Source: Arenicellales bacterium | GTDB taxonomy: Bacteria > Pseudomonadota > Gammaproteobacteria > Arenicellales > JAHEKD01 | Assembly (NCBI GenBank): GCA_965215945.1 | Contig: CBDCFC010000051.1 | Span: 13,084-77,083 of the forward strand | Length of the DNA stretch: 64,000 nucleotides | Direction: 5' to 3' | Part shown: in pieces, positions 11,030 through 54,656 of the stretch | Position numbering within the stretch: the stretch's first letter is position 1 | Layout of the letters: each line of letters begins with the position of its first letter | The notes under the pieces: generated by a model | What the model saw: only the letters and a program-made list of their open reading frames with translations | The model's database searches: none | What the model was told of the DNA's origin: nothing | Translations under genes and position numbers: made by a program

Positions 11030-11052
11030 AATTTACAGATGAAAGAAACGAT

Positions 11053-11241
11053 ATGTTTAGCACTATGAAACAGTTAAGACTAATACTACTGGTTTTTACT
11101 AGTGTTTTATTGATTTCGGCCTGTGAACAGGCTGAGGATGTAACCTTGCATGAACCTGGTGTTTACCAGGGCGCTAAAGATGATTTGTCAACTGATACGG
11201 CTGCATTACAGCAAAGATTGAAAAATCAAATGGATCGCTAG
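11053..11241 (+). CDS. Small lipoprotein (62 aa)
   Basis: Signal peptide with lipobox LLISAC. Confidence 0.6.
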   Translation: MFSTMKQLRLILLVFTSVLLISACEQAEDVTLHEPGVYQGAKDDLSTDTAALQQRLKNQMDR

Positions 11242-11266
11242 TCAACCATTGAAAGGATGAACTAAC

Positions 11267-28774: not shown

Positions 28775-28943
28775 GTCATCTCCCACTTTATGTCACCTAT
28801 CTTCAGGCTCGAGTTTAGAATATTCAAGAATTGTAACTGAATATCAAGACTCTCGTATAGTCAGCTGTGATGATTGTTTTGAGAGTACTACTAAAAACGG
28901 GTGTATAATTGTTATTAATATTCATTCAAAGGAGATCAAAGTG

Positions 28944-36441: not shown

Positions 36442-38031
36442 CTAGTTGCACATAGCATTTTGAACAACTTTAGAATTTGTTGGTGGTTTCCTTAACAAAT
36501 ACATATTCAGAATTTCCTGTATCACAATGTCCGGATTTAATGTTTGTATGAGTTGATCAGGAAAATGAAAAATGGCCCGGGAAAAATAATTTTTTTGTCC
36601 GTGAGCGCTTATTAATGGAAACACTTTTTGAATGAACGAATCGCCGAGCACAAGTATTTTTTCTAGGTTGCCGGAAGGATTTTCTATAACTTCAACGGAG
36701 TAGTCTTTACCTGACTCGCTAGTTATTATCCTCCGCGGAATTTTAATATCAAATACCCCTTCCGTACCGTAAGGAGTCATGCCTTGCATGGGGTTGCCGG
36801 ATTTTGGCATCAACTTTATATAGTGTTCATTGTTATACCAGTTTGGTAGCAAACCCAACAGACTAAGAAATGCCTTATGTGCCCATTGTTGGTTGATGTC
36901 CAAATCAAACTGATCCAGTTCAATTGCATGAATGTTCTCATTTGGATACATAGGTGAAACTTGCTCAATAATTGCTTGGTAAGCATAGTAAGCGCCCAGG
37001 TAATTCCAGTGAAAATCTGTCCGGTAAAACAACTTAGGATATTGCTGAAGTAACTTTGCATGCTTTAGTGCATGCGTTAAATTCAAAACCGGTAAATTGT
37101 TATTTTTTTTAAGCTGTTTTTCAAGCAGTTCAATACGTGGTGGTGTGGCTGACTTTGATTTGATGGCAACCAGTTTTTTGGGTAAGTATTCGGGGTATAC
37201 CAGGGCCTTTGTTGGTGCAATTGTGAATAGATACTTTACGCCTTGATTGCTAAGCCAGCATTTACGTTGTTGGATGACTTGTTCCCATTTTTCCAGTTCA
37301 CCATCGTCAAAAGGCAGGCGACCGAGATAGTCGGAAACATTGTCGAAGAAGGCCACTTTGTCTCCTTCTATTCGCCTTTCACCGGTGCCTTCGAACATCA
37401 TTCCATTTTTTCCAATAATAACTTTTGAGGTTGGAGAACGTTCGAATAAATCAACTTTCAAGAGTGAGTTAACATGTCCAATTTCTTTTTTATAAACAAA
37501 ATCTTCTGAAAAACGTTTGCCAAATTTATCGAAAAATCCTAACGCAGTAGAGTTTTCCTGATTGTAAATTTCAGTGCTGATATTCTTAAATAATTTTACC
37601 TGCATGGAAAAACCAAGAAAAATAATTAGGAATAGTGATGCTGTGAGGAAATGTTTGTGAGTTTTAAAAATATGTGGTTTTGTTTTTACTAAATATAGAC
37701 TAAAACAGTAAATCAAAAAAATTATGAATAGTGTTGTTAAAACAAAGTGAAAAGGAAAAGTACTTAAAATAATTAATAAAATGATTAATAATCTGAATTT
37801 ATGTTTTTCTAAAAGCGTATATCTCTGGATCAGAGCAACACTGACTTTTCCAGCTAATAAAATTACAATGGTAATTAATGCAATAATTATTAAAGGGATA
37901 AGAAAGTTGGCCAGACCGGGATTTCCTAACTCAATATTGATATGGGCATTTTCCCCAAAACCGGAAAACAATGATGTGAATGCTGTATTTTGATATTTGT
38001 TAATGTTATGTGTTGATTCCTCAGTTGCCAT
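36442..38031 (-). CDS. DHHW-motif (AlgJ/AlgX-like) O-acetyltransferase with an N-terminal multi-TM region
   Basis: Motif FYRTDFHWNYLGAYYAY. It sits next to an MBOAT gene. The likely start is the ATG at 38031 (MATEEST). The DNA is very AT-rich. Confidence 0.65.
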   Translation of the reverse strand: MATEESTHNINKYQNTAFTSLFSGFGENAHINIELGNPGLANFLIPLIIIALITIVILLAGKVSVALIQRYTLLEKHKFRLLIILLIILSTFPFHFVLTTLFIIFLIYCFSLYLVKTKPHIFKTHKHFLTASLFLIIFLGFSMQVKLFKNISTEIYNQENSTALGFFDKFGKRFSEDFVYKKEIGHVNSLLKVDLFERSPTSKVIIGKNGMMFEGTGERRIEGDKVAFFDNVSDYLGRLPFDDGELEKWEQVIQQRKCWLSNQGVKYLFTIAPTKALVYPEYLPKKLVAIKSKSATPPRIELLEKQLKKNNNLPVLNLTHALKHAKLLQQYPKLFYRTDFHWNYLGAYYAYQAIIEQVSPMYPNENIHAIELDQFDLDINQQWAHKAFLSLLGLLPNWYNNEHYIKLMPKSGNPMQGMTPYGTEGVFDIKIPRRIITSESGKDYSVEVIENPSGNLEKILVLGDSFIQKVFPLISAHGQKNYFSRAIFHFPDQLIQTLNPDIVIQEILNMYLLRKPPTNSKVVQNAMCN

Positions 38032-38395
38032 GGCCAAAGGGCTTATCCAATGTGATAAGAGGTTTCTTTCTATGACTAGTAATTCCTTTGCTGGAAAAAG
38101 TTTTATGGCGACGATCAAGATAAAAAAGAAGCTTTTTATCGCTTAGATCGCTATTAAATTTCTTGCTATAGATGTAATGTCTTGTGTTGACCAGGAAATG
38201 ATGTTTTTCATTAATAGTGTTGTGTTGGTCACGAATTTCTAGTTTGATGTCACCATAATTTTCTGGCTGCGCAAACAAAAATACAGATGTGCTTGACACT
38301 GATCTAATAAGAAAAAACAGACTGATAAATAGAGCAAGAAAACAAAAAGAATCAAACAGATTAAATTTTATTTTGTTCATTAAGTTTATGCTCAA
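38021..38395 (-). CDS. Small membrane-anchored hypothetical protein between the MBOAT and DHHW genes
   Basis: 124 aa with one N-terminal TM helix (FCFLALFISLFFLI). It overlaps both neighbours by a few nt, which suggests translational coupling. Confidence 0.5.
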   Translation of the reverse strand: MSINLMNKIKFNLFDSFCFLALFISLFFLIRSVSSTSVFLFAQPENYGDIKLEIRDQHNTINEKHHFLVNTRHYIYSKKFNSDLSDKKLLFYLDRRHKTFSSKGITSHRKKPLITLDKPFGHGN

Positions 38396-39843
38396 AACCT
38401 GAAATAAAGAAACGGATTGTAATTGCCACTAATGGTGGCGATGATTGACAATAACGTTAAACCAGTGAGCATAATAAAAAAAACAATTCGGGCTAAAACA
38501 ACAACGCTTGATTGGTCTGTGGGATTTTTGAATTCTAAATTGTTAAGTCGTTTCTTAGCATTTGGATAAATCGGAGTGGAAAATAAAATGCCGAAAAGCA
38601 ATGCAATGTAAAGTTCATTATTCATCTTATTAATCAGAAATACATTCATGAATATTTCGCGATTAAAACTAAACATGGCTTGGTAATATTCCATGGCATA
38701 CTCAAGCGTGGGAGCCCTAAACAAAACCCAGCCAAATAAAACCATCAACAGTGTATAGCTATGGGCAAGAATTTTTGGTGACTGCATCAATAATCTATCG
38801 AAAAAACGAATCCGCTCAATTGAAAGCAAAAAACCGTGGAACAAACCCCAAGCGATAAAATTCCAACTCGCTCCATGCCACAAGCCACAGAGAAAAAATA
38901 CAATGAACAAGTTGAACATTGTGCGTGATGTTCCAAATCGATTTCCTCCCAAAGGAATGTAAAGATAATCACGGAACCAGGATGACAATGATATATGCCA
39001 ACGTCGCCAAAAATCCTTGATACTTCTCGCTGAATAAGGGTAATTAAAATTTTCCTTGATGTTAAACCCAAACATCCGGCATAGACCAATTGCCATATCG
39101 GAATAACCGGAAAAATCGAAATAAATCTGCAATGAATATCCAATAATTGCTAACCATGCCAGTTCAGCGTTAATATCTGAAGGGTCGAGGCTAAAAACAG
39201 AATCTACAAATTCACCAATTGTGTTCGCTATTAGGACTTTTTTAGCCAAACCAATAATGAACCTCTCAGAACCATACGCCAGATTGTCCAGTGTTATCGA
39301 ACGATTGGTAATCTGTTTATCAATGTCGTGATAACGAACTATAGGCCCGGCAATTAGTTGCGGAAACAACGAAATGTATAAGCCTAAATTTAAAACCGAT
39401 TTTTGTGCTTTTGCCTCACCCCTGAAGATGTCAATTAAATAAGAAATGGCCTGGAAGGTGAAGAAAGAAATGCCTATCGGTAGGGGGACAGATTCGAAGT
39501 TGAGTTTTTTAAAATCTATTGTCTGAAGCAGGTCGTTAATATTTTCGATAAAAAATCCGGAATATTTGAAATAGATGAGCGGAATTAAATTTAAAGCTAT
39601 GCCGATACTTAGTATGTATTTTTTTGTATTCTTAGTAGTCGCTCTTACAAGCAATAATCCAATGATGTAACTGACTGAAATAGAGTACAGCATAATCATC
39701 ACATAAGCCTTTTCTCCCCAGGTGTAAAAAATTAGACTCGCTATCAGAAGCACGATATTCCAGGCTTTCCGACCAAAAAAGTAATGAACGATTAATACAA
39801 TCGGCAAGAATAAAAAAAGAAAGGTTTCCGAACTGAATACCAC
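38392..39843 (-). CDS. MBOAT-family membrane O-acyltransferase (AlgI/DltB-like)
   Basis: The N-terminus MVFSSETFLFLFLP, the motif FWRRWHISLSSWFRDYLYIPLGGNR and the conserved His in GLWHGASWNF match the family. Confidence 0.88.
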   Translation of the reverse strand: MVFSSETFLFLFLPIVLIVHYFFGRKAWNIVLLIASLIFYTWGEKAYVMIMLYSISVSYIIGLLLVRATTKNTKKYILSIGIALNLIPLIYFKYSGFFIENINDLLQTIDFKKLNFESVPLPIGISFFTFQAISYLIDIFRGEAKAQKSVLNLGLYISLFPQLIAGPIVRYHDIDKQITNRSITLDNLAYGSERFIIGLAKKVLIANTIGEFVDSVFSLDPSDINAELAWLAIIGYSLQIYFDFSGYSDMAIGLCRMFGFNIKENFNYPYSARSIKDFWRRWHISLSSWFRDYLYIPLGGNRFGTSRTMFNLFIVFFLCGLWHGASWNFIAWGLFHGFLLSIERIRFFDRLLMQSPKILAHSYTLLMVLFGWVLFRAPTLEYAMEYYQAMFSFNREIFMNVFLINKMNNELYIALLFGILFSTPIYPNAKKRLNNLEFKNPTDQSSVVVLARIVFFIMLTGLTLLSIIATISGNYNPFLYFRF

Positions 39844-39994: not shown

Positions 39995-40765
39995 CTAGAT
40001 TATATTTTTATCAAATGCATATTTAATCAACATCAGAAAACATATTATTATAATTACCGGCCGGATAAATTTCGCTCCGCCTTTAATCACACTTAACGCA
40101 CCTAAATAACCGCCAATAATTTGGCCGAATATCATGACGAGTCCGGCCAGCCATATGATTTTGCCACCAAAGATAAATACAATGAGCGAGGCAAAATTGC
40201 TGGTGAAATTCAAAAGTTTGGCATTGGCAGTTGCGGACACTAGGTCTCTGCCACGAAGCGCAACACCGCCTAATGTGTAAAACATGCCTGCACCAGGTCC
40301 GACATAGCCATCATAAAATCCTATAGCAGGCACACATGCATAACGCCAGGATTTAATAGAGGCTCGTGGTTTGGTTTCAATTTCACCAGCCTTGGGTGCA
40401 AATAAAAAATAAAGACCAATCACGGCAATTACTATTGGAATCAAAAATTCCAGTACGTTATCCGGGGAAAGCTGAATGGCAATAGCACCCAGAATTGCCC
40501 CGACAAGGCTAGCAATAATGCTGGGCCAAATTTGAGCTATGTTTACTTGTTTATTTTTAAGCATAGCGATTGAAGCAGAAAACGTACCAAAACTGCCTTG
40601 CAGTTTATTAGTAGCAATTGCCTGAATAGGAGACATTTGTGTTAACAACAGAGCAGGGATAGTCAATAAACCACCACCACCTGCCACCGCGTCAACAAAA
40701 CCACCCACAATGGCGACAAAAAACAAAAAGATCAGCAATGGATCAAATAAAAGCTCGGCCAGCAT
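39995..40765 (-). CDS. TSUP (TauE/SafE) family anion exporter
   Basis: 256 aa with about 8 TM helices. Gly-rich helices GGFVDAVAGGGGLLTIPAL and the internal repeat match the family. Confidence 0.8.
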   Translation of the reverse strand: MLAELLFDPLLIFLFFVAIVGGFVDAVAGGGGLLTIPALLLTQMSPIQAIATNKLQGSFGTFSASIAMLKNKQVNIAQIWPSIIASLVGAILGAIAIQLSPDNVLEFLIPIVIAVIGLYFLFAPKAGEIETKPRASIKSWRYACVPAIGFYDGYVGPGAGMFYTLGGVALRGRDLVSATANAKLLNFTSNFASLIVFIFGGKIIWLAGLVMIFGQIIGGYLGALSVIKGGAKFIRPVIIIICFLMLIKYAFDKNII

Positions 40766-40775
40766 CTAATGATTA

Positions 40776-42014
40776 TCAGGCCGCCAACAGATTTTTTAAG
40801 TCGATTTGTGAATTACCCAGATCAAGTGGATCAACTTGTTTATTACGTTCAATCAGCATTTGTGTCATTCTGACTTCTTTGGCAACTGTTGCACCCTTGC
40901 CAATGCCAACAACTCCATACAGGCTTCCATTCTTTAACGCAAAATAAACCACACATTCATCGGCGACTGAACCACGTGAAACGATTTGGTCTGCATCATG
41001 AGTGAACCCAGCTGTTTGAATCACCCAGTTATATTGCTGTGACCAGAGCCACGGTACGGGATCATAAGCTTGAGGATCGCCGAGTATAGTTTTGGCAACG
41101 GTTACTGCCTGTAAATCAGCATTTTGTGATGATTCTAACCGGATGTGTTGATCGTAACGTGGCAGATAAGTGCAAGCACAATCGCCAATCGCATAAATAT
41201 TGTCTATCGAAGTCCTGGTGAATTGATCGGTGATAATGCCATTGTTGATTTGTAGTCCAGTCTGCTGTGCGAGTTCTGTATCTGGAATGATACCAATACC
41301 TATAACAACATTGTTTGCTTTAAGGCTAGTGTTATCGGCGAGCTCAACAGTTTCAACACGACCATTACCACTGAATCCCCTTATTGATACACCAGTTAGG
41401 ATTTTTACTCCAAATTGATGATGCACAGCAGCAACATCGGCAGCGGCATGTTCCGGCATTGAACGTGACATCAGTCTGTCCTGTGCTTCCAGTACAGTTA
41501 CGTTGCAGTCCAATTCTCTGGCGCTGGCGGCTATTTCCAGACCGATAAAGCCGCCACCAATAATCACCAGGTCGCTGCCGGGTTTTAAGTTTTGGGATAG
41601 GTCAATTGAATCCTGATCAGTCCGAAAGGTAGTAATGCCGTTCAAGTCGCACCCAGGTAACGATAGTTCACGTGGATAAGAACCCGTCGCAAAAATCAAA
41701 TGGCTGTAATTGAAGGTTTTGCCGTCAGCACAGGTTGCGATTTGATTCTCTGTATCAATTGAAGTGGCACTGCAATCCAAGTGCAAATTAATATTTTTTT
41801 CTTGATAATTTTCTAGCGTAGAAAGATGTGTTTTTTCAATCGGTTTTTTACCTAACAACACCGCTTTTGAGAGTGGAGGTCTGTTGTAGGGTGGAGAAGG
41901 TTCCTTGCCTATAAGATGTATTTCACCCTTGAAACTATTATCTCTAAGTGTCAGCGCAGCGCGGCCACCTGCCTGTCCCGCACCGACAATGACGACAGAA
42001 TCGTTGTTACCCAT
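40776..42014 (-). CDS. FAD/NAD(P)H-dependent ferredoxin reductase (pyridine nucleotide-disulfide oxidoreductase family)
   Basis: Dinucleotide folds VVIVGAGQAGG and LVIIGGGFIGLEIA, plus IYAIGDCA. Confidence 0.88.
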   Translation of the reverse strand: MGNNDSVVIVGAGQAGGRAALTLRDNSFKGEIHLIGKEPSPPYNRPPLSKAVLLGKKPIEKTHLSTLENYQEKNINLHLDCSATSIDTENQIATCADGKTFNYSHLIFATGSYPRELSLPGCDLNGITTFRTDQDSIDLSQNLKPGSDLVIIGGGFIGLEIAASARELDCNVTVLEAQDRLMSRSMPEHAAADVAAVHHQFGVKILTGVSIRGFSGNGRVETVELADNTSLKANNVVIGIGIIPDTELAQQTGLQINNGIITDQFTRTSIDNIYAIGDCACTYLPRYDQHIRLESSQNADLQAVTVAKTILGDPQAYDPVPWLWSQQYNWVIQTAGFTHDADQIVSRGSVADECVVYFALKNGSLYGVVGIGKGATVAKEVRMTQMLIERNKQVDPLDLGNSQIDLKNLLAA

Positions 42015-42016
42015 AG

Positions 42017-42325
42017 CTAAAGCTCAATAAATATGTCGTTGTTCTCGACTTTAACAGGGTAAGTTTTTAAATCAACACAAACCGGGGCGCTCAATGCTTT
42101 GCCATTAGTAATCTCAAATCGACCTTGATGCAATGGGCATTCGATGACTGTGCCAATGACTAAACCATCTGCCAGCTCTTGATGTTCATGGGTACAAATT
42201 CCATCAGTGGCAAAGAAATCTTTTTCGGTGTTATAGACTGCGTAGACTTTGTCATCGTGATCAAACTGGATGACGTCTTCTTGATCAATATCGTCGCTGC
42301 AACAAACCCGGTGCCACTCACTCAT
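42017..42325 (-). CDS. Rieske [2Fe-2S] ferredoxin
   Basis: The canonical motifs CTHEH and CPLHQGRF are present. The protein is 102 aa. Confidence 0.88.
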   Translation of the reverse strand: MSEWHRVCCSDDIDQEDVIQFDHDDKVYAVYNTEKDFFATDGICTHEHQELADGLVIGTVIECPLHQGRFEITNGKALSAPVCVDLKTYPVKVENNDIFIEL

Positions 42326-42352
42326 ATTTCTGTTTTTCTCTAACTATTGAGG

Positions 42353-43345
42353 TTATCCATTTATCATGCTTGGGTCTTGTCGTATTGAAGCAGCTTTAGT
42401 CGACTTACCCAGTGAACGGCGAATGACTACTGACAATACTTCCAGGTTGGTGCGAAAAAAACCTGGATCGGGCTCATAGAGTTGTTCTTTAATTGTTTGG
42501 TTCAAATTCATTAATTGATGAAACGGCACCATAGGATAAAGATGATGTTCGACATGATTGTTCATGTTCATGTACAGAAAACTGGCCAGCCAATTGGTTT
42601 TGAACGATCGGGTCGAATTGAGAATATTAATCTGATTTTCTTGCATTTCGACATGCTGGATCAACGTAAACAGCAACATCACTGGGCCACCGAGAATACG
42701 TGGAATAATAAAGTAAAGCAGCGGCCATTGATAACCGGCTATCGCTAAACCGATAAGTGCAGCATAACCGGCCAAGAAAATAATCGCGCCGCGTTGTAAC
42801 TTCGGCAGCTCCGATTCAGGGGTATGCTCACGAGTGATATCGCTAAATCGACCCGTCGCGTTTTCAAAAAAGATTTTTAGTTCATAAATAAATAAGCCTA
42901 AGCCACTAATCTCAAGCAGCCAGCCTTTCAAGTCCATGGGAGTTTCAAACGGCATTTGTGAATCTTTGCCATTGATCCAAGTATAGGTATGGTGGCGTGT
43001 GTGTGAATAACGACGATGGTACGGCTCTTCAAAATAGATGAATGAAGATATCCAGAACAGTACCTCGTTAATATTTCTGTTTTTAAAAGCCGTGCCGTGT
43101 GCGCACTCATGAGACAGTGAGTATCCGGGTACGGTCAGAAATATGCCATACACAAACATGGCTGGAATCACCCAGATAGTGCCTAGCGACAGGTGGATTA
43201 AATAACCCGTTATCAGGAGAAAACCTATCCATTGCACTAACCAGATCACCCCTGGTTTATCGCTGCGCCTGGAGAGTTGTTTAATTAGTTTTTTATCAAC
43301 AACTACGCCAGAAGAAGCTGCATTAGTTGCCTGATAGTCTGTCAT
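42353..43345 (-). CDS. Membrane fatty-acid-desaturase/hydroxylase-family di-iron protein
   Basis: Three His boxes (HECAHG, HTRHH within SHTRHHTYT, and HVEHHLYP) are flanked by TM helices. Confidence 0.85.
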   Translation of the reverse strand: MTDYQATNAASSGVVVDKKLIKQLSRRSDKPGVIWLVQWIGFLLITGYLIHLSLGTIWVIPAMFVYGIFLTVPGYSLSHECAHGTAFKNRNINEVLFWISSFIYFEEPYHRRYSHTRHHTYTWINGKDSQMPFETPMDLKGWLLEISGLGLFIYELKIFFENATGRFSDITREHTPESELPKLQRGAIIFLAGYAALIGLAIAGYQWPLLYFIIPRILGGPVMLLFTLIQHVEMQENQINILNSTRSFKTNWLASFLYMNMNNHVEHHLYPMVPFHQLMNLNQTIKEQLYEPDPGFFRTNLEVLSVVIRRSLGKSTKAASIRQDPSMING

Positions 43346-43353
43346 CTCAAACT

Positions 43354-44115
43354 TTAATCCTTATAATCAGGTTCAGTCTCATCCAGAATTGCCATCAACT
43401 CACGGAAATGATTGCTGGCAGCATTCGGATAGTTTTCCCACTGTTGGGCAGTCTTTTCAGCTATCTCATCACTTAACACACGCATCGGCTTTTGGGTCAT
43501 CAAGGCCAGTACGTAGTTTTTGGCCGCGCGTTCGAAATAGTACATTTCATCGTAGGCCTGGGCGACGCTGGGAGCGATGACCATAAGTCCGTGATTACCC
43601 ATCACCATAATACGTTTGTCTCGCATCAAACCACAAACACGTTCACCTTCTTCTTGAAATGCCATGCCACCAAAGCCCTCATCAACCACGACGCGGTTAA
43701 AAAAACGGGCTGTATTCTGATCGATGGGTTGCATTAAGCTGTCTTGCAAACTGGCCAACACGGTTGAATAAGTGCTATGGACATGCAAAATACAATGCGC
43801 ATGAGGTAAATTGCGGTGTAATGAACCATGTAAACCCCAGGCACTTGGGTCGGGTGCATCTGGGCGCTTCATGGTGTCAGGATCATTGGCATCACAGAGC
43901 AAAATATTGCTGGCCTTGATCCGGGAAAAATGGGTGCCGTTAGGGTTAATCAAAAACTTCGATCCGTCTTCTGAAACGGCCAGAGAAAAGTGATTAGCAG
44001 CAGCTTCATGGAAATCGTGCCTGACAGCCCAACGAAAAGCGCAGGCCAGTTCACAGCGCTGTTGATAATGTTCAAGTTGTGAGTCAGTAGTTTGTGCGAA
44101 TGCTTTTACAGTCAT
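43354..44115 (-). CDS. Class II aldolase/adducin-family protein
   Basis: The metal-binding His pattern (ILHVHSTY, MGNHGLMV) is typical of the family. The likely start is the ATG at 44115, with AGGA 8 nt upstream. Confidence 0.78.
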   Translation of the reverse strand: MTVKAFAQTTDSQLEHYQQRCELACAFRWAVRHDFHEAAANHFSLAVSEDGSKFLINPNGTHFSRIKASNILLCDANDPDTMKRPDAPDPSAWGLHGSLHRNLPHAHCILHVHSTYSTVLASLQDSLMQPIDQNTARFFNRVVVDEGFGGMAFQEEGERVCGLMRDKRIMVMGNHGLMVIAPSVAQAYDEMYYFERAAKNYVLALMTQKPMRVLSDEIAEKTAQQWENYPNAASNHFRELMAILDETEPDYKD

Positions 44116-44232
44116 GGCGATAATCCTGTGTGTCGTGTGTACTAAAGTATGCAATCTGGAACTTTCACATACAAACGAAAAAAATTGAGTCTATACATTA
44201 GTAATACTTATGATTAACTTATAATAATTATT

Positions 44233-45126
44233 ATGGAACGAAAATTACCCCCCTTGAACTGGTTGCGAGCATTTGAATCAGCCGCGCGTCACCTAAGTTT
44301 CACTGATGCTGCGCGTGAGTTGCATATGACACAATCGGCAGTCAGCCAACAGATTAAGGCCCTGGAAAATTACCTTGGTAAAACCTTCTTTATTCGCAAA
44401 CCCCGTTCACTTGAATTAACGGTTGATGCACAAAATTATTTGCCTACTGTTGAAGCCGCGTTTAAGTTGCTTTATGAAGGTACCCAGGGGGTGCTCGGCG
44501 TTAATCACGATCGGTTATTGGAAGTCCGCGCCAATTTGGCGTTTACTGTTTTTTGGTTGACACCGAGGTTGGACGACCTGTTTGAAAAACACCCGTGGAT
44601 AAATCTAAACGTCGCTACAACAATATGGACAGCCAGCCCGGCTACTCCCTATGCCAGTGTCGAAATCCGTTTTGACAGTGTCTTATCAGAAGGTTTATCG
44701 ATTGACCCACTGATTCAAGATGAGTTCTACCCGGTGTGTTCACCTGAATTAGCTACTCAGATTTCAAAACCACAAGATTTATTAAACCATCGGCTTATTG
44801 ACGTCAGCGGCATTATCGAGGGATGGGATAAATGGTTTACCTCAGCCAGAGTTAACTTACCCACTGATAAACCAATCGATAAAGCCAGCACTTATGTCGT
44901 CACATTAAACATGGCTCAGTTAGGTCAGGGAATTGCTCTCGCCCATGATATGATCGCTCAAGATTTAATTGCACAGGGAAAGTTAGTGAAGTTGTTTGAT
45001 TATGCTGTGCCCATGAAAGAACATTATTATTTGATTCCACCCGCTAAGCGCAATGCGAATGCAGCTTCAATTGCCTTTAATGAATGGCTGGAAGATCAGA
45101 TGACTGAGTTTGATGCCATCTCATAA
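44233..45126 (+). CDS. LysR-family transcriptional regulator (GcvA-like), divergent from the oxygenase operon
   Basis: N-terminal HTH LNWLRAFESAARHLSFTDAARELHMTQSAVSQQIKALE. Confidence 0.9.
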   Translation: MERKLPPLNWLRAFESAARHLSFTDAARELHMTQSAVSQQIKALENYLGKTFFIRKPRSLELTVDAQNYLPTVEAAFKLLYEGTQGVLGVNHDRLLEVRANLAFTVFWLTPRLDDLFEKHPWINLNVATTIWTASPATPYASVEIRFDSVLSEGLSIDPLIQDEFYPVCSPELATQISKPQDLLNHRLIDVSGIIEGWDKWFTSARVNLPTDKPIDKASTYVVTLNMAQLGQGIALAHDMIAQDLIAQGKLVKLFDYAVPMKEHYYLIPPAKRNANAASIAFNEWLEDQMTEFDAIS

Positions 45127-45222
45127 ACTTGGTTATCCATGCTCGAATTATGGACTGTCATCAAAACGAAATGATTTTTGAAATTAACTTCTATCAGCTT
45201 ATCTCCTAGAGAAATGTGGATT

Positions 45223-46279: not shown

Positions 46280-47155
46280 ATGGATAACATTAAGAATAAG
46301 CAGCTTCAAGTTCGCGAAAAGACGATTTTTGACGGTTTTTTCTTCAAAAATGTTCTTAAATTCATTTTCAATATTGTTTTTAAATTAACGGGTTGGACTT
46401 CCGGGCCCGCACCAAAAACCACGGGCGTTGTTATCGGTGCACCACACACTTCCAACTGGGATTTTCTTTTTGGTTTCGGCGCGGCAATTCTTGAAGACGT
46501 TAAAGTTTATTTTTCCATCAAGGAGAGTTGGTGCCGTATTGCGATTATAGGTCCTGTCATTATGCGTTTTGGTGCCATACCGATTGATCGTTCCTCACCA
46601 GGGCAAGGTCAGTCAGAACAGATTACAAAGTTTGTTGAAAAAATGAAAGGTCAATGGATTTATTTTGCATTCACACCGGAGGGCACACGGGGCAAAGTCG
46701 AGAAATGGAAAACCGGTTTTTATCATGTGGCGCAAGATTGTCAGCTTCCCTTACATTTGGCAAAACTTGATTATGAGAATAAAAATGCGGGAATTTTTCA
46801 CAGCTTTCATATAACAGGAAACAAAAGGGATGACATCAGAGTATTGCAGGAGGCCTATAGTTTGATTCACGGTAAAAATACCGACAAACAATTTCCGGAT
46901 TATGCTGGCAAAGTGCCGGACTTATCAAAAACAGAAGCTGATATCATGCGCGCACTTTATTTGCTTGATGAAAGTGCTACTGAAATGCAAATCGCCGCCA
47001 AGGCTAATTTCAGCATCCAGGCCTCGACAATGTTGGAACCGTTAATAAAAATGGGATTAGTGGAAAAAACTGTTAATGAGTTTAACGAGCCGGCATACCA
47101 ACTGACGTTTAAAGGCAAAGGTTGTTTGTTGCATTTGTTCCCAATAGTGGAATAA
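46280..47155 (+). CDS. PlsC-type acyltransferase domain fused to a C-terminal winged-helix-like domain
   Basis: The Hx4D motif GAPHTSNWDF and FTPEGTRG are present. The C-terminal 80 aa (EADIMRALYLLDESATEMQIAAKANFSIQASTMLEPLIKMGLVEK) look MarR/wHTH-like. Confidence 0.7.
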   Translation: MDNIKNKQLQVREKTIFDGFFFKNVLKFIFNIVFKLTGWTSGPAPKTTGVVIGAPHTSNWDFLFGFGAAILEDVKVYFSIKESWCRIAIIGPVIMRFGAIPIDRSSPGQGQSEQITKFVEKMKGQWIYFAFTPEGTRGKVEKWKTGFYHVAQDCQLPLHLAKLDYENKNAGIFHSFHITGNKRDDIRVLQEAYSLIHGKNTDKQFPDYAGKVPDLSKTEADIMRALYLLDESATEMQIAAKANFSIQASTMLEPLIKMGLVEKTVNEFNEPAYQLTFKGKGCLLHLFPIVE

Positions 47156-48233: not shown

Positions 48234-49007
48234 GTGACAGAAAAAATGTTTGCCCGCACAATTGTTCGAATACCTTGTGAAAATATGAGTAGGGGAATTA
48301 CTTGTGCTGATCTTGGCCTGCCAGATTACGGGCAGGCATTGTCCCAGCACCAATCATATATCAATGCGTTAGAACAATGCGGTTTAGCAGTAACCATTCT
48401 TGAGCCTGAACCGGATTATCCGGACAGTGTGTTTATTGAGGATACGGCATTGCTCACTAGTGATTGTGCAATTGTGACCAGACCAGGTGCTGATTCGCGC
48501 AAAGGTGAGGTTGGATCCGTGAAACGGGCACTAGATCAGTTTTATGATGAAATTCACGAAATTCCAGCACCTGGAAGCTTGGATGCCGGTGATATCATGA
48601 TGGTGGGTTCGCATTTTTATATTGGGCTTTCAGATAGAACTAATCAACCAGGCGCCCAGCGGATGATTGAAATTCTGAATCGTCATGGTATGACAGCTTC
48701 AACCATTACGATGGCCGAAATGCTGCATTTGAAAACAGGTCTGTCTTATCTTGAAAATAATAATCTGCTTATCACCGGGGAGTTTGTTGGTAAAGAGGAA
48801 TTCGCCGGTTTCAATCAGATTATCGTTGACGATGATGAAGCTTATGCGGCCAATTCTGTTTGGATTAACGACAAGGTTTTAGTTCCTGCAGGATATCCGC
48901 GAACCAGCTGTAAGATAAGCGCTTTGGGTTATCAGGTCATTGAGCTGGAAATGTCCGAATTTCAAAAGCTTGATGGTGGGCTTAGTTGCTTGTCGCTGCG
49001 ATTTTAG
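48234..49007 (+). CDS. Amidinotransferase-fold enzyme, dimethylarginine dimethylaminohydrolase (DDAH)-like
   Basis: The C-terminal catalytic Cys context LDGGLSCLSLRF, VFIEDTA and a size of 257 aa fit. Confidence 0.7.
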   Translation: MTEKMFARTIVRIPCENMSRGITCADLGLPDYGQALSQHQSYINALEQCGLAVTILEPEPDYPDSVFIEDTALLTSDCAIVTRPGADSRKGEVGSVKRALDQFYDEIHEIPAPGSLDAGDIMMVGSHFYIGLSDRTNQPGAQRMIEILNRHGMTASTITMAEMLHLKTGLSYLENNNLLITGEFVGKEEFAGFNQIIVDDDEAYAANSVWINDKVLVPAGYPRTSCKISALGYQVIELEMSEFQKLDGGLSCLSLRF

Positions 49008-49112: not shown

Positions 49113-50171
49113 TTGTCTCACCGGAAAAATCTTAAAGAAAACGAGGAAAATGTGGATACTGTTAGCTTAAAACAAGAGGGTTCGTCAACACTGGGGTCGA
49201 ACGCAGTGCGTAATCAGATATATGCACTGGAAGATTTTATGAATAGCCGTATCCTGGGTCAGCAAAACCTGGTTTCCAGGATGTTAGTCACTCTGCTGGC
49301 TGACGGGCATTTGTTAGTTGAAGGCGCGCCAGGATTGGCGAAAACCAAAGCGGTAAAAACATTGGCAGAAGGATTGGAAGGTGAATTCCAACGTATTCAA
49401 TTCACACCGGATTTGTTGCCCGCAGATTTAACCGGCACGGATGTCTATCGGCCACAGGACGGCAGTTTCGAATTTCAACCTGGTCCCTTGTTTCACCATA
49501 TTATTCTTGCCGATGAAATAAACCGCGCGCCGGCGAAAGTTCAATCAGCATTGCTTGAGTCCATGGCGGAACGGCAAATCACGGTGGGCGGAAAGACTTA
49601 CAGTTTGCCGGATTTGTTTTTCGTGATGGCGACACAAAATCCGATTGAGCAGGAAGGGACCTATCCACTACCCGAGGCACAACTGGATCGGTTTTTATTA
49701 CAAGTCAATATTGACTATCCGCAAGTCTCCTCTGAACGTCAGATTATGCTGCAAGCCAGACAGGAGGCACGAGGTGATCGTGAGGTGACGATGTTGCCGG
49801 ATAGATTGCCTGTTAGTCAGCAAGATGTTTTTCAAGCTCGCCAGGATGTGTTGCAAGTTCACATGGCCGAAACGGTTGAAGAATATATTGTGCAACTGGT
49901 TCAGGCTACTCGAGACAGCCAACACTACTCAGCAAAATTACCTGAGTGGATTCAATACGGTGCCAGTCCGCGCGCAACCTTGGCATTTGATCGTTGTGCC
50001 CGAGCTTTGGCCTGGTTGGATAATCGTGATTATGTTTCACCCGAAGATGTCCAGCAACTGGCACATGAAATTCTCAGGCACCGTATTTTATTGTCCTATC
50101 AAGCGGAGGCCGATGGCGTGACAATTACCGATGTAGTGGATGAGCTGATTGCCAAAATCCCCGTGGCCTAG
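49113..50171 (+). CDS. MoxR-family AAA+ ATPase
   Basis: Walker A motif GAPGLAKT, Walker B motif ILADEINRA, and MATQNPIEQEGTYPLPEAQLDRF. The start is uncertain: TTG at 49113, or GTG at 49152 after gagga. Confidence 0.9.
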   Translation: MSHRKNLKENEENVDTVSLKQEGSSTLGSNAVRNQIYALEDFMNSRILGQQNLVSRMLVTLLADGHLLVEGAPGLAKTKAVKTLAEGLEGEFQRIQFTPDLLPADLTGTDVYRPQDGSFEFQPGPLFHHIILADEINRAPAKVQSALLESMAERQITVGGKTYSLPDLFFVMATQNPIEQEGTYPLPEAQLDRFLLQVNIDYPQVSSERQIMLQARQEARGDREVTMLPDRLPVSQQDVFQARQDVLQVHMAETVEEYIVQLVQATRDSQHYSAKLPEWIQYGASPRATLAFDRCARALAWLDNRDYVSPEDVQQLAHEILRHRILLSYQAEADGVTITDVVDELIAKIPVA

Positions 50172-50174
50172 AGA

Positions 50175-50474
50175 AGCCCGAATATTTCATAAATCGGACT
50201 GGAAAGATGAAATTGAATCAAGCAGATAGTAAATATTTCCGATCTGCCCAGCATGAAAAGATTGCCCTGTTTGAGTTCAGGCCCAATCTGCCGTCACATT
50301 TCGATCGATCCTTCCCGCGCCCTATTTCAAAAAGATTGCTTAAACGATCGCCCGAACTGTTTTGTTCGGCACATCCGTGTGCCTCACTCCTGCGGGGCTT
50401 GCGCGAAAAATCACTCCCGGTAATTTTTTGTCAGCTTGCCCCTGATTCTCAAAGATTCATAAAACTTTCGGGCT
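50175..50474 (+). repeat. 300-bp copy B of the AGCCCG...CGGGCT element family, filling the moxR-DUF58 spacer
   Basis: The ends are agcccgaa (50175) and ttcgggct (50467-50474). Blocks homologous to 20489-20733 are present; for example, 50266-50315 versus 20589-20637 matches at about 36 of 50 positions by hand alignment. Confidence 0.65.
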
Positions 50475-50485
50475 GCATGTAATCC

Positions 50486-51406
50486 ATGGCGATAGTAGCT
50501 GAAAAAATACCAGGCGTTACAGTGGAAGTTTCGGATTTAATTAATGTCCGTTCAAAATTGGCCGGTCTTTCACTAAAAAAAATAAGACACCGAACATCTC
50601 GAAGTTCAGGGCTGCGTGAGACCAGGGTTCGTGGTCGAGGAATGGAGTATGAGGAATCAAGGGCATATATCGCAGGGGATGATGTCCGTACTATGGATTG
50701 GCGGGTTATGGCCAGAACCGGCGAGCCCCATACTAAAGTGTTTACCGAAGAAAAAGAGCGCAGCGTTATGTTGGTGGTGGATTTGTCCTCATCAATGTTT
50801 TTTGGCACTCGTTATGGCTTTAAATCCTACAGTGCTGCCCAAACTGCTGCTCATGTGGGATGGTTAGTGGTGCAAGCAGGAGATCGTTTGGGCGGACTGA
50901 TCGCCTCTTCATCAGCTCATTATGAAATCAGACCTAAAAAGAGTAGTTCTAATTTAATGCAGATTTTTCACCATCTGGAGCAGGAATGTAATATCGATTT
51001 GCCTGTTGTCAATGAACCCAGTCGACTTAACTTTATGTTGGCAGAATTACGCCGGGTGATTAAACCTGGCACAATCATTGTGTTGGTATCAGATTTATTG
51101 GGAATAGATAATCAAACACCTGCATTGATATCGTCGCTAGCCAGAAACAATGATCTGATGGCATTTTGGGTACATGATCGTACCGAAACACACCTTTGGC
51201 CGGAAGGCCGGTATGAAATTTTAGCCAATGAAAATCAGATTTCTCTCGATCTAAGGGCAGACTCAGCGGCAAAATGGCTTACTAATGAACAACAATCACA
51301 GAAATCAACCATCGAAAATTTAGCCAGTCAATTCAAAATGTGGATGTGTCCCGTTTCTTGTAATGAAACTGTGACACCGCAATTACAGAAATATTTAAAA
51401 GGCTAA
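50486..51406 (+). CDS. DUF58-domain protein (vWA-like partner of MoxR)
   Basis: The motif GMEYEESRAYIAGDDVRTMDWRVMARTG and the block VVDLSSSM match the family. Confidence 0.88.
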   Translation: MAIVAEKIPGVTVEVSDLINVRSKLAGLSLKKIRHRTSRSSGLRETRVRGRGMEYEESRAYIAGDDVRTMDWRVMARTGEPHTKVFTEEKERSVMLVVDLSSSMFFGTRYGFKSYSAAQTAAHVGWLVVQAGDRLGGLIASSSAHYEIRPKKSSSNLMQIFHHLEQECNIDLPVVNEPSRLNFMLAELRRVIKPGTIIVLVSDLLGIDNQTPALISSLARNNDLMAFWVHDRTETHLWPEGRYEILANENQISLDLRADSAAKWLTNEQQSQKSTIENLASQFKMWMCPVSCNETVTPQLQKYLKG

Positions 51407-51410
51407 AACT

Positions 51411-51908
51411 ATGTCGGTCGAGGAACTATTAGCCCAACTAAAAGATATTCAAACACCGATTGAGCCAGGTTGGTGGCCATTAGCCTTGGGTTGGTGGTAT
51501 TTGTTTGGATTGGTTGCATTGCTGTGGATCACTGCATGGTTTTTGAAAAAGCGAAAACAATCGAACCGATCAGTTGTGATGGCTTCTAGCGAATTGGAAA
51601 AAATCAAAAATGAATACTTACAGACTAATAACGATAACCAACTGGCTTTGAATCTATCAATATGGCTTAAGAAAGTCAGCTTGTATGCATTTCCTGATCA
51701 GGCAGTGGCTGGGTTAACGGGTCAGCGTTGGCTAGAGTTTTTGGATAACAGTGCTAACGAGGATCAGTTCACTACCGGTGCAGGTCAGGTATTTGCGGAT
51801 TCTATTTATAGTAATGATGTAAAAATTAATGCAGCGGCGGTTATTGATCTGTGCGAAAAATGGTTGTCTTCTGTTAAACCTGAGCTGATCAAGCAGGGGC
51901 AGGTTTGA
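51411..51908 (+). CDS. DUF4381-like single-pass membrane protein
   Basis: The motif PIEPGWWPLALGWWYLFGLVALLW is followed by KKRK. It occupies the typical position between the DUF58 and BatA genes. Confidence 0.7.
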   Translation: MSVEELLAQLKDIQTPIEPGWWPLALGWWYLFGLVALLWITAWFLKKRKQSNRSVVMASSELEKIKNEYLQTNNDNQLALNLSIWLKKVSLYAFPDQAVAGLTGQRWLEFLDNSANEDQFTTGAGQVFADSIYSNDVKINAAAVIDLCEKWLSSVKPELIKQGQV

Positions 51909-52912
51909 TGTTGACGCTTGAGTGGTGGTGGGCATTGTTACTCTTGCCAATTCCTTTTTTGGCGAGATTGCTTTTACCTGTCGCAAACCGATCGGAGGCT
52001 GCATTATCGGTACCACTATTCGAACAAGCGGATGTGCCCATTAGTTCCAGAACACAGTCGAAAAGATGGTTGCCAAGAATATCCTTATGGCTATTCTGGA
52101 TATTTTTGGTATTAGCTGCCAGTCGACCGCTTTGGGTTGGTGAACCTGTTACCCAAACAATAAGTGGTCGTGATCTAATGTTGGCGGTAGATATTTCCGG
52201 CAGTATGCAGGAAAAAGATATGCTGGTTAATTCAAGAGCTGTCAGTCGCATTGAAGTGTTAAAAAAGGTTGTCAGCGAATTTATCAATCGTCGAGAAGGA
52301 GATCGTCTCGGCTTGATTTTGTTCGGTACCAATGCCTATACCTACGTACCATTAACCTTTGATCGACAGACCTTAAATGAATTATTGCTCGATGCCACGA
52401 TAGGGTTGGCAGGCCGTGGAACTGCCATTGGTGACGCAATAGGCTTGGCGGTCAAGCGCATGCGTGAGCGCGAAGCAGAGCAAAAAATTCTTATCCTGAT
52501 TACTGATGGCTCGAATACTTCCGGGATTACCGATCCACTCGAAGCCGCGCAAGCCGCTGCCCAGGAGGGCTTGAAAATTTATAGTATTGGAGTCGGCACC
52601 GATGCCGATACTATGCGCCGCGTGTTCGGGATTCAGCGAATCCGCCCGGGAACTGCGCTTGATGAGGCGACACTCAGGCAGATCGCCAACTACACGGGTG
52701 GCGAATACTTTCGCGCCAAGGATGTTGCGTCTTTAGAAAACATCTATTCTACTTTGGATGAACTAGAGCCGATTGAACGGGAGGATCGAACCTATAGGCC
52801 ACGAAAAGAGCTATTCTATTTGCCATTATTGGCTGGCTTGTCTGTGATTTTGCTGTTTATAAGCTGGCTAATATTTAGCAACAAAATACCATCGAGCAGA
52901 CAACATGTTTGA
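51905..52912 (+). CDS. BatA-like vWA-domain membrane protein
   Basis: N-terminal TM helices, the MIDAS motif AVDISGSM and a C-terminal TM helix. Confidence 0.85.
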   Translation: MMLTLEWWWALLLLPIPFLARLLLPVANRSEAALSVPLFEQADVPISSRTQSKRWLPRISLWLFWIFLVLAASRPLWVGEPVTQTISGRDLMLAVDISGSMQEKDMLVNSRAVSRIEVLKKVVSEFINRREGDRLGLILFGTNAYTYVPLTFDRQTLNELLLDATIGLAGRGTAIGDAIGLAVKRMREREAEQKILILITDGSNTSGITDPLEAAQAAAQEGLKIYSIGVGTDADTMRRVFGIQRIRPGTALDEATLRQIANYTGGEYFRAKDVASLENIYSTLDELEPIEREDRTYRPRKELFYLPLLAGLSVILLFISWLIFSNKIPSSRQHV

Positions 52913-54656
52913 GGGGTTAAAAATTCAATTTCTCAATCCAATATGGCTGGCGCTATTACCGCTGGTGTGGGCGCTATGCTGGTTGTTCCTAAAGCGTTTC
53001 AAAACACATTCCATGTGGAGTGAGCTTTGTGATAAACATTTATTACGAATTCTTCTGCCCAAGGCATCACAAACCAAGACATCTAGCTGGTTGGTCTGGA
53101 TAATGATTATAGTGTTTTCGTTGATCATTTTAGCCGCAGCCGGACCTAGCTGGCGGACTCAGCCAATTCCGTTATTTGAGTCTGCTGCATCCAGGGCTAT
53201 AGTGCTGGATTTGTCGCGCTCCATGATGGCCGAGGATATTGAACCCACTCGATTTAAACGTGCGGTTTTTAAAGCAAAAGATTTGATCAGTTCCAATAAA
53301 GACGGACAGACAGCGTTAATCGCTTTTGCTGGTGCCGCATTCGTGGTTTCACCTTTAACAGATGATAATAGAACTTTATTGAATTTTCTGGATTCCTTAA
53401 AACCCGATATCATGCCGGTGCAGGGTAGTCGGATTGACCAAGCGATATTAATGGCTGAAAAAGTCTTACAGGGTTCGCTCTCAACAACTAGCCATATTTA
53501 TATTCTTTCTGACGGTGTCAGCGAACTCGAAGCAGCCGTGACTGCAGCAAAAAACGCTGCAAATAACGGTTTGTCTGTATCCGTGCTTGCATTGGGAACT
53601 GAACAGGGCGGTCCGATTAAAGATAGCTCAGGCCGCTTAATTAGAGATCAACAGGGGCAATTGATTATTGCCAAAGTTGGTTTCGGTGATCTGCAAAAGA
53701 TTGCTCAGGCAGGTAACGGCCGCTTCGTTAGAATGACGGCATCCGATTCAGATATTGAATATCTGCTTTCAGCAATTGATGAGAATGAATTCGATCAGTC
53801 TCAGGATTCAGAGGACAAAACATTATCACTACCGGTCAATGATGGCATCTGGTTAGTCTGGTTAATTTTGCCGCTGGCATTATTACTGTTCAGAAAAAAT
53901 GCGCTGTGGTTATTGGCGTTGATATTGATCTTGCCGCCACAGCAGCAAGCTTATGCTTTTGATTGGAACAAGCTCTGGAAAAATAAAGAGCAACAGGCGT
54001 ATGAGGCTTTTCAGAAAGGCCAATATGACGAGGTTAAATCACTTTCATCAGATCCGCAGTTAAAAGGTTCTGCTTTTTATAAAGAACAGGACTATCAAAA
54101 TGCTGAGACCTGGTTCTCCCAACAGGGAACGGCACAATCGTTTTACAATCGCGGTAATGCATTGGCGCAAATGCAACAATTCGAAATGGCACTAGCTGCC
54201 TATGATTATGCGTTAGATAAAGATCCGGAGCACGAATCGGCAAAATATAACAAAAATTTGATTGAAGAATTTTTAAGGCAGCAAATAAACCAGCAAAATT
54301 CCCAGCAAAATGACGAAAATCAGGGTGATGAGTCTAGCGATGAGTCAGCAGATCAAAGCGAATCTGACCAGTCGCAATCGGAACAGTCAAGAGCGCCACG
54401 CAGCTCAAGCGATGATGATTTGCAATCTGATTCGACTGAGGAACAACAAGAGGAACAAAAACAGATCGATCCGGAAGATGAAGAGGGAAATCCTGCTGAT
54501 AAGGATTTGGCCTTGCAGAATGAGACTAATAGAGAAAGAAAAAATCCTGAGTCTATTGACCGCTGGATTAATCGTTTGCCGGACGATCCATCAGAATTAT
54601 TGCGGCGTAAGTTTCTAAGAGATTATCAACGGCAGTCAGGTCTGGGTAGACAGTGA
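52905..54656 (+). CDS. BatB-like vWA plus TPR protein with an acidic tail
   Basis: The vWA motif VLDLSRSM, TPR repeats (YNRGNALAQMQQFEMALAAYDYALDKDPEH) and an Asp/Glu/Gln/Ser-rich C-terminus. Confidence 0.85.
   Translation: MFEGLKIQFLNPIWLALLPLVWALCWLFLKRFKTHSMWSELCDKHLLRILLPKASQTKTSSWLVWIMIIVFSLIILAAAGPSWRTQPIPLFESAASRAIVLDLSRSMMAEDIEPTRFKRAVFKAKDLISSNKDGQTALIAFAGAAFVVSPLTDDNRTLLNFLDSLKPDIMPVQGSRIDQAILMAEKVLQGSLSTTSHIYILSDGVSELEAAVTAAKNAANNGLSVSVLALGTEQGGPIKDSSGRLIRDQQGQLIIAKVGFGDLQKIAQAGNGRFVRMTASDSDIEYLLSAIDENEFDQSQDSEDKTLSLPVNDGIWLVWLILPLALLLFRKNALWLLALILILPPQQQAYAFDWNKLWKNKEQQAYEAFQKGQYDEVKSLSSDPQLKGSAFYKEQDYQNAETWFSQQGTAQSFYNRGNALAQMQQFEMALAAYDYALDKDPEHESAKYNKNLIEEFLRQQINQQNSQQNDENQGDESSDESADQSESDQSQSEQSRAPRSSSDDDLQSDSTEEQQEEQKQIDPEDEEGNPADKDLALQNETNRERKNPESIDRWINRLPDDPSELLRRKFLRDYQRQSGLGRQ

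Follow-up and report, generated by a model that had tools for sequence, protein, structure and literature searches.

The closest described counterparts of the locus considered here are the mocDEF genes of rhizobia. According to PMC10107442 and PMC5132102, these genes form one transcription unit required for rhizopine catabolism (Bahar et al., 1998); they are described there as rhizopine-inducible and as a "ferredoxin oxygenase complex", in which MocD acts on an inosamine. Here we analyze a block of six genes at positions 39995-45126 of a stretch of 64,000 nucleotides from an Arenicellales bacterium (contig CBDCFC010000051.1 of assembly GCA_965215945.1; this whole stretch is called the window). 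Five packed genes encode a membrane FADS-like di-iron oxygenase, a Rieske ferredoxin, an FAD-dependent reductase, a class II aldolase/adducin-fold protein and a TSUP (TauE/SafE-family) transporter, and a LysR-type regulator gene diverges from them. By architecture, the oxygenase, ferredoxin and reductase appear to be a three-component membrane oxygenase of the MocDEF type, and we lean, with modest confidence, towards a substrate-inducible catabolic operon built around it, the substrate of which would be a betaine-like onium osmolyte.

MocD, MocE and MocF of Sinorhizobium/Rhizobium likewise comprise a membrane His-box oxygenase, a Rieske ferredoxin of about 100 aa and an FAD reductase of about 410 aa, and the trios annotated as MocDEF-like in rhizobia and Pseudomonas syringae are of the same kind, with the order and co-direction seen in the window. 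The differences lie in what surrounds the trio. The window operon has an additional aldolase-fold partner resembling NovR and TqaM, a GcvA-like LysR takes the place of a MocR- or LacI-type regulator, and its clade is found in a marine setting, among amine, betaine and dimethylsulfoniopropionate (DMSP) genes. Moreover, neither the 64-kb window nor the two syntenic Arenicellales loci contain mocCABR or inositol genes; therefore, the system would work like MocDEF but is not one for rhizopine.

Other described systems share parts of this design. AlkB with rubredoxin and the XylM-type enzymes also combine a membrane His-box di-iron monooxygenase with a soluble iron-sulfur carrier and a flavoprotein reductase, but the carrier in the window is a Rieske ferredoxin instead of a rubredoxin or a plant-type ferredoxin; furthermore, sequence comparison of the window oxygenase with NCBIfam and the PDB gave no match to AlkB, and its conserved context gives no hint of hydrocarbons. 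GntB, the L-arginine gamma-hydroxylase of guanitoxin biosynthesis, is a membrane enzyme of the FA_desaturase family that handles a small, charged, water-soluble substrate. It differs in being biosynthetic and in that its family model, NF041365, implies no Rieske or reductase partners; the window oxygenase matches this model only very weakly, with 44 bits where the cutoff is 380, although it has no other NCBIfam match above 30 bits.

A functional parallel may be found in HpbB1C1/HpbR, which carry out an O2- and NAD(P)H-dependent oxidative N-demethylation of proline and hydroxyproline betaine under a divergent LysR (PMC3950512), GbcAB and Stc2 being analogous. Relatives of the window operon adjoin hpbD and hydroxyproline-catabolism genes, and we infer a functional analogy with these betaine demethylases. 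The catalytic subunit of Hpb is, however, a soluble Rieske non-haem-iron oxygenase, whereas the Rieske protein of the window is a ferredoxin only and the catalyst would be the membrane di-iron protein. The aldolase-fold partner, in turn, resembles NovR, CloR, TqaM and pyruvic-oxime dioxygenase in fold, in its three-His site and in lacking the catalytic Glu of FucA, but it is distant from them in sequence and falls in a separate NCBIfam family (PRK07490). Set beside these cases, the window system belongs neither with AlkB/rubredoxin nor with the FucA-type aldolase pathways, and it is no TauE-linked route of desulfonation either. A literature search returned background on mocDEF, HpbD and TqaM/NovR and no paper describing the marine clade, so that the statement of an earlier, sequence-only reading of this DNA, that no characterized pathway with this gene set was known to it, is supported for the marine set.

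A MocDEF-type oxygenase in an Arenicellales operon

The six open reading frames lie at the coordinates given in the sequence-only reading, and the domains of all of them were upheld by Pfam and NCBIfam. The five minus-strand genes are packed within 39995-44115, with spacings of 10, 2, 27 and 8 nt when read from the TSUP gene towards the aldolase-fold gene, and the LysR gene (44233-45126) diverges from them on the plus strand; every reading frame, gap, domain, Rieske motif and His box described there is present. The operon block is syntenic in two Arenicellales metagenome-assembled genomes (MAGs), at 77-79% nucleotide and 83-89% protein identity. This synteny, together with the adjacency of FADS and Rieske genes in 70 of 80 genome loci (out of at least 262) that carry an oxygenase homologue at 54-89% identity, means that the arrangement is not due to chance.

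The MocD-like oxygenase (42353-43345, minus strand, 330 aa; Pfam FA_desaturase, 2.2e-34) is a predicted integral-membrane di-iron protein with hydrophobic stretches at residues 31-77 and 183-230. It carries three His boxes, HECAH (79-83), HRRYSHTRHH (110-119) and HVEHH (264-268), the His residues of which are invariant across 21 homologues. Compared with a "hydrocarbon oxygenase MocD-like" protein of Rhizobium etli, it shows 35% identity over 296 aa, the comparison having been made with this annotated protein and not with the original MocD of S. meliloti L5-30. The MocE-like Rieske [2Fe-2S] ferredoxin (42017-42325, minus strand, 102 aa; Pfam Rieske, 3.6e-17) has both cluster motifs, CTHEH and CPLHQGRF, and is 59% identical to the MocE-like protein of R. 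etli. Its best NCBIfam match is TIGR02377, "MocE family 2Fe-2S ferredoxin", with 124.5 bits, just below the cutoff of 136.15, and its orthologous neighbour in Paracoccus seriniphilus is labelled "MocE family" by PGAP. The MocF-like FAD-dependent NAD(P)H:ferredoxin reductase (40776-42014, minus strand, 412 aa) contains the Pfam domains Pyr_redox_2, Pyr_redox and Reductase_C; it is 39% identical over 408 aa to the reductase that follows the MocE-like protein in R. etli, and its NCBIfam matches, HcaD-like (334 bits) and AndAa-like (313 bits), both stay under the cutoff.

On the R. etli plasmid pRetIE4803a the genes run LacI, MocD-like, MocE-like Rieske, FAD oxidoreductase and "ketopantoate hydroxymethyltransferase", so that the order D-E-F is common to both trios. 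When annotated plasmids were searched by tblastn with the window oxygenase, 288 records were found, mostly rhizobial and at about 31-35% identity over 89% of the protein, one of them annotated "hydrocarbon oxygenase MocD-like". With a threshold of E<=1e-3, a profile search of 1.84 billion representative proteins gave 4269 clusters, of which 213 remained at E<=1e-30.

Among the longer relatives, natural fusions of FA_desaturase and Rieske domains exist (P0272, P0280, P0288, P0301 and P0324), and one protein of 760 aa, P0296, joins FA_desaturase, Rieske and NAD_binding_1 domains and would potentially be a self-sufficient membrane monooxygenase. By the Rosetta stone argument, these fusions show that the membrane di-iron domain has the Rieske domain as its direct redox partner. 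The premise that FADS- or AlkB-type oxygenases are not normally fed by Rieske ferredoxins, on which the sequence-only reading had leaned, was therefore wrong, since MocDEF, known from rhizopine catabolism, has exactly this architecture. Judged by homology, the pairing of a membrane FADS-like protein with a Rieske ferredoxin and an FAD reductase is not new. What does find support is the proposal that the operon, associated with a LysR gene, encodes a three-component membrane monooxygenase with a small polar substrate, the substrate side being suggested by the company that the operon and its relatives keep.

The AlphaFold2 model of the oxygenase has a mean confidence score (pLDDT) of 83.6. A sequence search against the PDB gave no match at E<=1, and the only Foldseek matches of the model were two FADS-like subunits of the chloroplast Ycf2/Orf2971-FtsHi complexes, at a template modelling score (TM) of about 0.6; the model-based comparison thus seems to add nothing to the Pfam assignment.

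Conserved neighbourhood in relatives

Across the 80 loci, the Rieske ferredoxin gene adjoins the FADS gene in many genera. A divergent LysR gene is found in 58, and in 51 the aldolase-fold gene adjoins the FADS gene; an FAD reductase of the window type occurs in seven and a TSUP gene in a single one. The co-occurrence of five genes implied by the sequence-only reading consequently stands in part: FADS, Rieske, LysR and aldolase-like genes are widespread together, but the reductase and the TSUP gene are not.

Relatives have further companions. A PanB-like (Pantoate_transf) gene is inserted between the oxygenase and Rieske genes in 36 loci, and a PanB-like gene also follows the MocDEF-like trio of R. 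etli. An M24 protein, a paralogue of DddP (283 bits against a DddP cutoff of 600), is present in 17-20 loci, and scattered loci have FA_hydroxylase, TRAP, BCCT, MttB, GcvT, DgcA-like, GbdR-like, IlvD/Edd or MocR genes. In many genomes the whole is reduced to a compact unit (LysR<>aldolase-FADS-(PanB-like)-(M24)-Rieske).

Some clusters are particularly rich. One of them (L083) reads Aldedh-MttB-ADH-HpbD-SDR-SDR-DAO-LysR-aldolase-FADS-PanB-like-Rieske-GcvT-HpcH-PrpD, followed by GbdR-like and DgcA-like genes, and its MR_MLE gene scores 580 bits to HpbD of P. denitrificans (4E8G), a proline/hydroxyproline-betaine epimerase (PMC3950512). In Pelagibius the LysR gene adjoins Pro_racemase-DAO-DHDPS-Aldedh, that is, a module leading from hydroxyproline to 2-oxoglutarate, and Aliamphritea has BCCT-MR_MLE-MR_MLE-LysR<>FADS-Rieske-reductase-M24-PanB-like. 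Matches to an ABC ATPase ("PROV") were rejected as betaine markers, the reference being a generic ATPase.

Two variants of the arrangement deserve mention. In a gammaproteobacterial MAG (L033, about 5998-9000), two divergent FADS-like copies surround an aldolase-fold gene, with the Rieske gene on the opposite strand and a GbdR-like and two BCCT genes downstream. Nine Paracoccaceae loci (L031, L039, L040, L044, L047, L052, L054, L063 and L077) have a distinct architecture without the aldolase-fold gene, in which a MocR-type regulator is divergent from an IlvD/Edd dehydratase, FADS, PanB-like and Rieske genes followed by a DctPQM TRAP transporter; this variant may handle a different substrate, for instance a hydroxy-acid.

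The aldolase-fold protein

The gene next to the oxygenase was first called at 43354-44154 (minus strand), as a protein of 266 aa with a TTG start. Its orthologues have 253 aa and an AGGA is conserved upstream of the ATG at 44115, for which reason this ATG is most likely the real start, giving a product of 253 aa (43354-44115; Pfam Aldolase_II, 2e-39). The protein belongs to NCBIfam family PRK07490, named only "hypothetical protein", with 387.8 bits against a cutoff of 260.

Three metal-ligand His residues, H111 and H113 (H-x-H) and H175 (N-H-G), align with the ligands of FucA and are invariant in 23 homologues. In those same homologues Ala92 is also invariant, in a P-S-A-W motif that replaces the S-S-E-W of FucA, and the Glu that is lost corresponds to Glu73, which we take to be the catalytic residue of the E. 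coli enzyme. HMMER alignments to solved structures show P-S-A-W at this position in NovR, TqaM and 3ocr as well, and phmmer relates the window protein to NovR (E 7e-15) and TqaM (E 2e-12). The AlphaFold2 model (pLDDT 89) was matched by Foldseek to NovR (9ryg; TM 0.84-0.85), 9n43 (0.83), TqaM (0.82-0.83; 9m09, 0.82), 3ocr (0.82; the best match in sequence and structure together, with no function assigned) and pyruvic-oxime dioxygenase (0.78-0.80), ahead of FucA-type aldolases (0.64-0.69). Sequence identity is 16-20% to TqaM and NovR, and 16-22% over the group formed by NovR/CloR/TqaM and pyruvic-oxime dioxygenase.

With the three His kept, the Glu of FucA replaced by Ala and the fold nearest to NovR and TqaM, the protein is probably a mononuclear-metal enzyme of the NovR/TqaM/3ocr branch and not a sugar-phosphate aldolase. 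NovR, CloR and TqaM are non-haem-iron oxygenases that carry out oxidative decarboxylation of alpha-hydroxy or alpha-keto acids (PMC12006828, PMC12186529). The earlier label of a class II aldolase holds for fold and domain and fails at the active site. The structure-based classification that had been proposed for the 266-aa and 330-aa proteins assigned the former to this branch and gave nothing close for the latter.

Regulation

The LysR-type regulator (44233-45126, plus strand, 297 aa; Pfam HTH_1 and LysR_substrate) is closest in NCBIfam to the GcvA subfamily (252.6 bits, cutoff 288), and then to a choline-sulfate regulator (175.5 bits). Between it and the operon lies a region of 117 bp (44116-44232) in which both promoters and a presumed LysR binding site would be located. 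Among three Arenicellales sequences it is conserved above the level of coding DNA, column identity averaging 86%, and it includes long AT-rich blocks that do not vary, as well as the AGGA already mentioned. A weak sigma-70-like site for the LysR gene is found at 44185-44214; promoter and terminator scans were at or below shuffle expectation, and no inverted repeat of the kind expected of a LysR dyad or box was detected in the 117 bp. From the general behaviour of LysR proteins and the precedent of HpbR, the regulator is presumed to be a substrate-responsive activator of the operon.

Proposed mechanism and substrate class

In the scheme that we propose, the FAD reductase would take electrons from NAD(P)H and hand them to the soluble Rieske ferredoxin, from which they would reach the di-iron center of the membrane FADS-like oxygenase. 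This center would activate O2 and hydroxylate a C-H bond of a small water-soluble metabolite rather than of a lipid. The hydroxylated product would then be processed by the aldolase-fold protein, through release of a one-carbon (C1) unit or C-C cleavage. The divergent GcvA-like LysR would turn the operon on when the substrate is present, and the TSUP protein would be a local addition that moves substrate or product. A small polar substrate would have its precedent in the nearest named relatives, MocD (inosamine) and GntB (L-arginine).

The occurrence of a PanB-like gene in both marine and rhizobial clusters suggests that it serves the oxygenase chemistry itself, and hence that the oxygenase may be an oxidative demethylase; in relatives, the PanB-like partner might, for example, pass a hydroxymethyl or formaldehyde unit to tetrahydrofolate. 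Together, the PanB-like, DddP-like, GcvT, MttB, BCCT and HpbD genes of relatives point to a betaine-like onium osmolyte, in other words to an N-methylated or possibly S-methylated zwitterion, as the substrate.

The window itself holds genes of related metabolism. At 27443-28786 (minus strand), 11 kb from the operon, there is a bona fide DMSP lyase DddP (NF043017, 683 bits, cutoff 600); relatives hold a DddP paralogue inside the operon, and the window genome has instead the true DddP nearby. Beside it are a TAXI-family TRAP solute-binding protein (28698-29921, plus strand) and, at 30021-32441 (minus strand), an FAD oxidase of 806 aa with a fused GcvT domain, which resembles dimethylglycine or sarcosine dehydrogenase (DMGDH-like) and suggests methylamine catabolism. 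A three-subunit membrane-bound formate dehydrogenase (7526-12358, plus strand; alpha subunit 955 aa, FDH3 beta 345 bits with cutoff 240, gamma cytochrome b 156 bits with cutoff 116) would give the organism a means of C1-unit oxidation; a poly-ferredoxin of 579 aa lies upstream of it (3758-5497). A dimethylargininase (DDAH)-like gene at 48234-49007 (plus strand; 371 bits, cutoff 450), with the same neighbourhood in one of the syntenic MAGs (L091), suggests the metabolism of methylated guanidino compounds.

Several points weigh against this interpretation. Betaine-related neighbours are found in a minority of loci, many loci being compact units without a dedicated transporter in unrelated surroundings, and the window operon itself has neither the PanB-like nor the DddP-like gene that backs the demethylase idea. 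By a targeted count, hydroxyproline/proline-betaine-type genes stand beside the operon in only about four lineages, so that this linkage was set aside as a general rule and kept as a hint. Homologues of the aldolase-fold protein that are 62-67% identical also occur alone in unrelated contexts, and for this reason its role may be more general than the oxygenase operon. The Rieske protein scores under the cutoff of the MocE family, the oxygenase model recovered neither AlkB nor SCD1 in Foldseek and has no close solved structure, and no biochemical reconstitution of the marine clade, or of MocDEF itself, was found in the literature.

Alternative explanations

An alternative that keeps closest to the aldolase-fold evidence would be a route resembling alpha-oxidation, in which the oxygenase converts a polar carboxylate, for instance DMSP, beta-alanine betaine or gamma-butyrobetaine, into an alpha-hydroxy acid, one carbon is then lost as CO2 through the NovR/TqaM-like protein and, in relatives, the DddP paralogue eliminates the onium group to yield pyruvate. 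The structural neighbours of the aldolase-fold protein are indeed oxidative decarboxylases of alpha-hydroxy and alpha-keto acids, DddP paralogues sit within related operons, and the true DddP lies within the window; yet the chemistry is purely conjectural, the sequence identity to TqaM and NovR is as low as given above, the PanB-like gene (also beside the rhizobial trio) is left unexplained, and the GcvT and MttB neighbours suit demethylation better. We consider this route unlikely. We rate somewhat lower still, as improbable, the idea that the trio is truly orthologous to MocDEF and would O-demethylate a methylated inositol or sugar of the rhizopine, pinitol or ononitol kind, thereby feeding inositol catabolism. 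The homology and gene order shared with MocD/E/F-like proteins, the MocE family as best match of the Rieske protein, and the PanB-like partner common to rhizobial and marine clusters all speak for it. On the other hand, the oxygenase has only 35% identity to the MocD-like protein, there is neither an inositol or sugar gene nor a LacI or GntR-MocR regulator near the window operon, the regulator being instead a GcvA-like LysR, the aldolase-fold partner is missing from the R. etli cluster, and the marine relatives adjoin amine and betaine genes rather than sugar genes.

The two remaining alternatives draw on local neighbours, and we hold both to be very improbable. A desaturase or hydroxylase acting on membrane lipids, with the Rieske/reductase pair as a mere electron source, would agree with the lipid-related Pfam name and Gene Ontology annotation of the family, and with the acyltransferase gene at 46280-47155 and the MBOAT/AlgX module at 36442-39843. 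Those neighbours, however, are not conserved with the operon (the MBOAT module does not adjoin it in L002 and is about 6 kb off in L001), the operon keeps company instead with soluble enzymes of small-molecule metabolism and a LysR that senses metabolites, and the nearest functionally named relatives, MocD and GntB, use soluble substrates. The sequence-only reading had proposed, in turn, that the monooxygenase may attack a sulfonated aliphatic compound and that the TSUP protein exports the released sulfite or sulfo-anion. The TSUP gene (39995-40765, minus strand, 256 aa; Pfam TauE, 9e-46) does lie 10 nt downstream of the reductase gene, and it has the same place after the reductase in L002/L091 and L092, the last a short Logan contig, being retained in two other Arenicellales assemblies. 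Nevertheless, it is missing beside the operon in L001, the oxygenase of which is 89% identical, and in the other 78 loci; its NCBIfam match is a generic YfcA-like model, below the cutoff (256 bits against 383); and Pfam and NCBIfam found no Xsc, SuyAB, TauD/SsuD-type, sulfite dehydrogenase or sulfonate-transporter family among the larger open reading frames of the 64 kb. In relatives, moreover, the company is of betaine- and methylamine-type genes and not of sulfonate genes. As the TSUP gene is not conserved with the operon and no desulfonating enzyme was found among those larger reading frames, the idea of a sulfonate substrate and sulfite export finds no support, and the TSUP gene is an addition to the 3' end of the operon that is specific to the lineage. 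Far from the operon lies another TauE-family gene, a divergent one (61908-62642, plus strand; Pfam 52 bits); therefore, TSUP genes are not specific to the operon locus in the window genome.

Genes around the operon

The surroundings of the operon vary among the Arenicellales sequences. Directly downstream of the TSUP gene is an O-acylation module of low G+C content (35-37%; 36442-39843, minus strand), composed of an AlgI-like MBOAT (38392-39843), an overlapping open reading frame of 124 aa and an AlgX-like SGNH protein (36442-38118). Since L002 lacks it next to the operon and L001 has it at a distance, this module was probably acquired separately from the operon. On the other side, an auxin-efflux-carrier-family gene and the LysR gene are 96 nt apart in the window (45127-45222). 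In L001 (3839-6139) and L091 (4677-6961), MOSC, Acyl_transf_3 and DinB genes lie between the two, so that there is an indel of about 2.4 kb beside the LysR gene between the window and both Arenicellales MAGs.

Farther away, the window contains a gene that joins a rubrerythrin domain to a membrane domain of the VIT1 family, similar to vacuolar iron transporters (217-1200, plus strand), an IS4/IS5-family DDE transposase with DUF4096 and DDE_Tnp_1 domains (5607-6347, plus strand), and a cluster of the Bat/MoxR-vWA type (49113-56353, plus strand) consisting of a MoxR AAA ATPase, a DUF58 protein, two vWA proteins and a BatD-like protein. An ankyrin-repeat protein of 247 aa is encoded at 12967-13710 (plus strand). 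Host-associated bacteria, sponge symbionts for instance, typically have ankyrin-repeat proteins, and the presence of this one would agree with the fact that many relatives of the operon come from such associations.

Significance

Systems of the MocDEF type have been known genetically since 1998, and the 213 clusters found at E<=1e-30 indicate that their architecture reaches well beyond rhizobia. Within this breadth, marine Alphaproteobacteria and Arenicellales commonly carry one coherent clade. Given its companions and its betaine, methylamine and DMSP surroundings, the operon clade offers a testable candidate for a step of marine osmolyte turnover; several culturable carriers, among them Leisingera aquimarina DSM 24565, Roseovarius albus CECT 7450, Aliamphritea spongicola JCM 16668 and Paracoccus seriniphilus DSM 14827, open it to genetics, and the three-domain fusion P0296 is attractive for biochemistry.

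A bolder possibility, advanced here only tentatively, is that the operon and its marine clade represent a new O2-dependent degradation route for a quaternary-ammonium or sulfonium osmolyte (betaine or DMSP-like). In such a route, an FADS-type enzyme would hydroxylate an onium methyl group or the alpha-carbon, the NovR/TqaM-fold protein would remove the C1 or C-C unit, and the PanB-like protein and the DddP paralogue would join in relatives. If true, it would amount to a new enzyme class for betaine and DMSP turnover, distinct from Rieske oxygenases, DmdA/GcvT, MttB and the known DMSP lyases.

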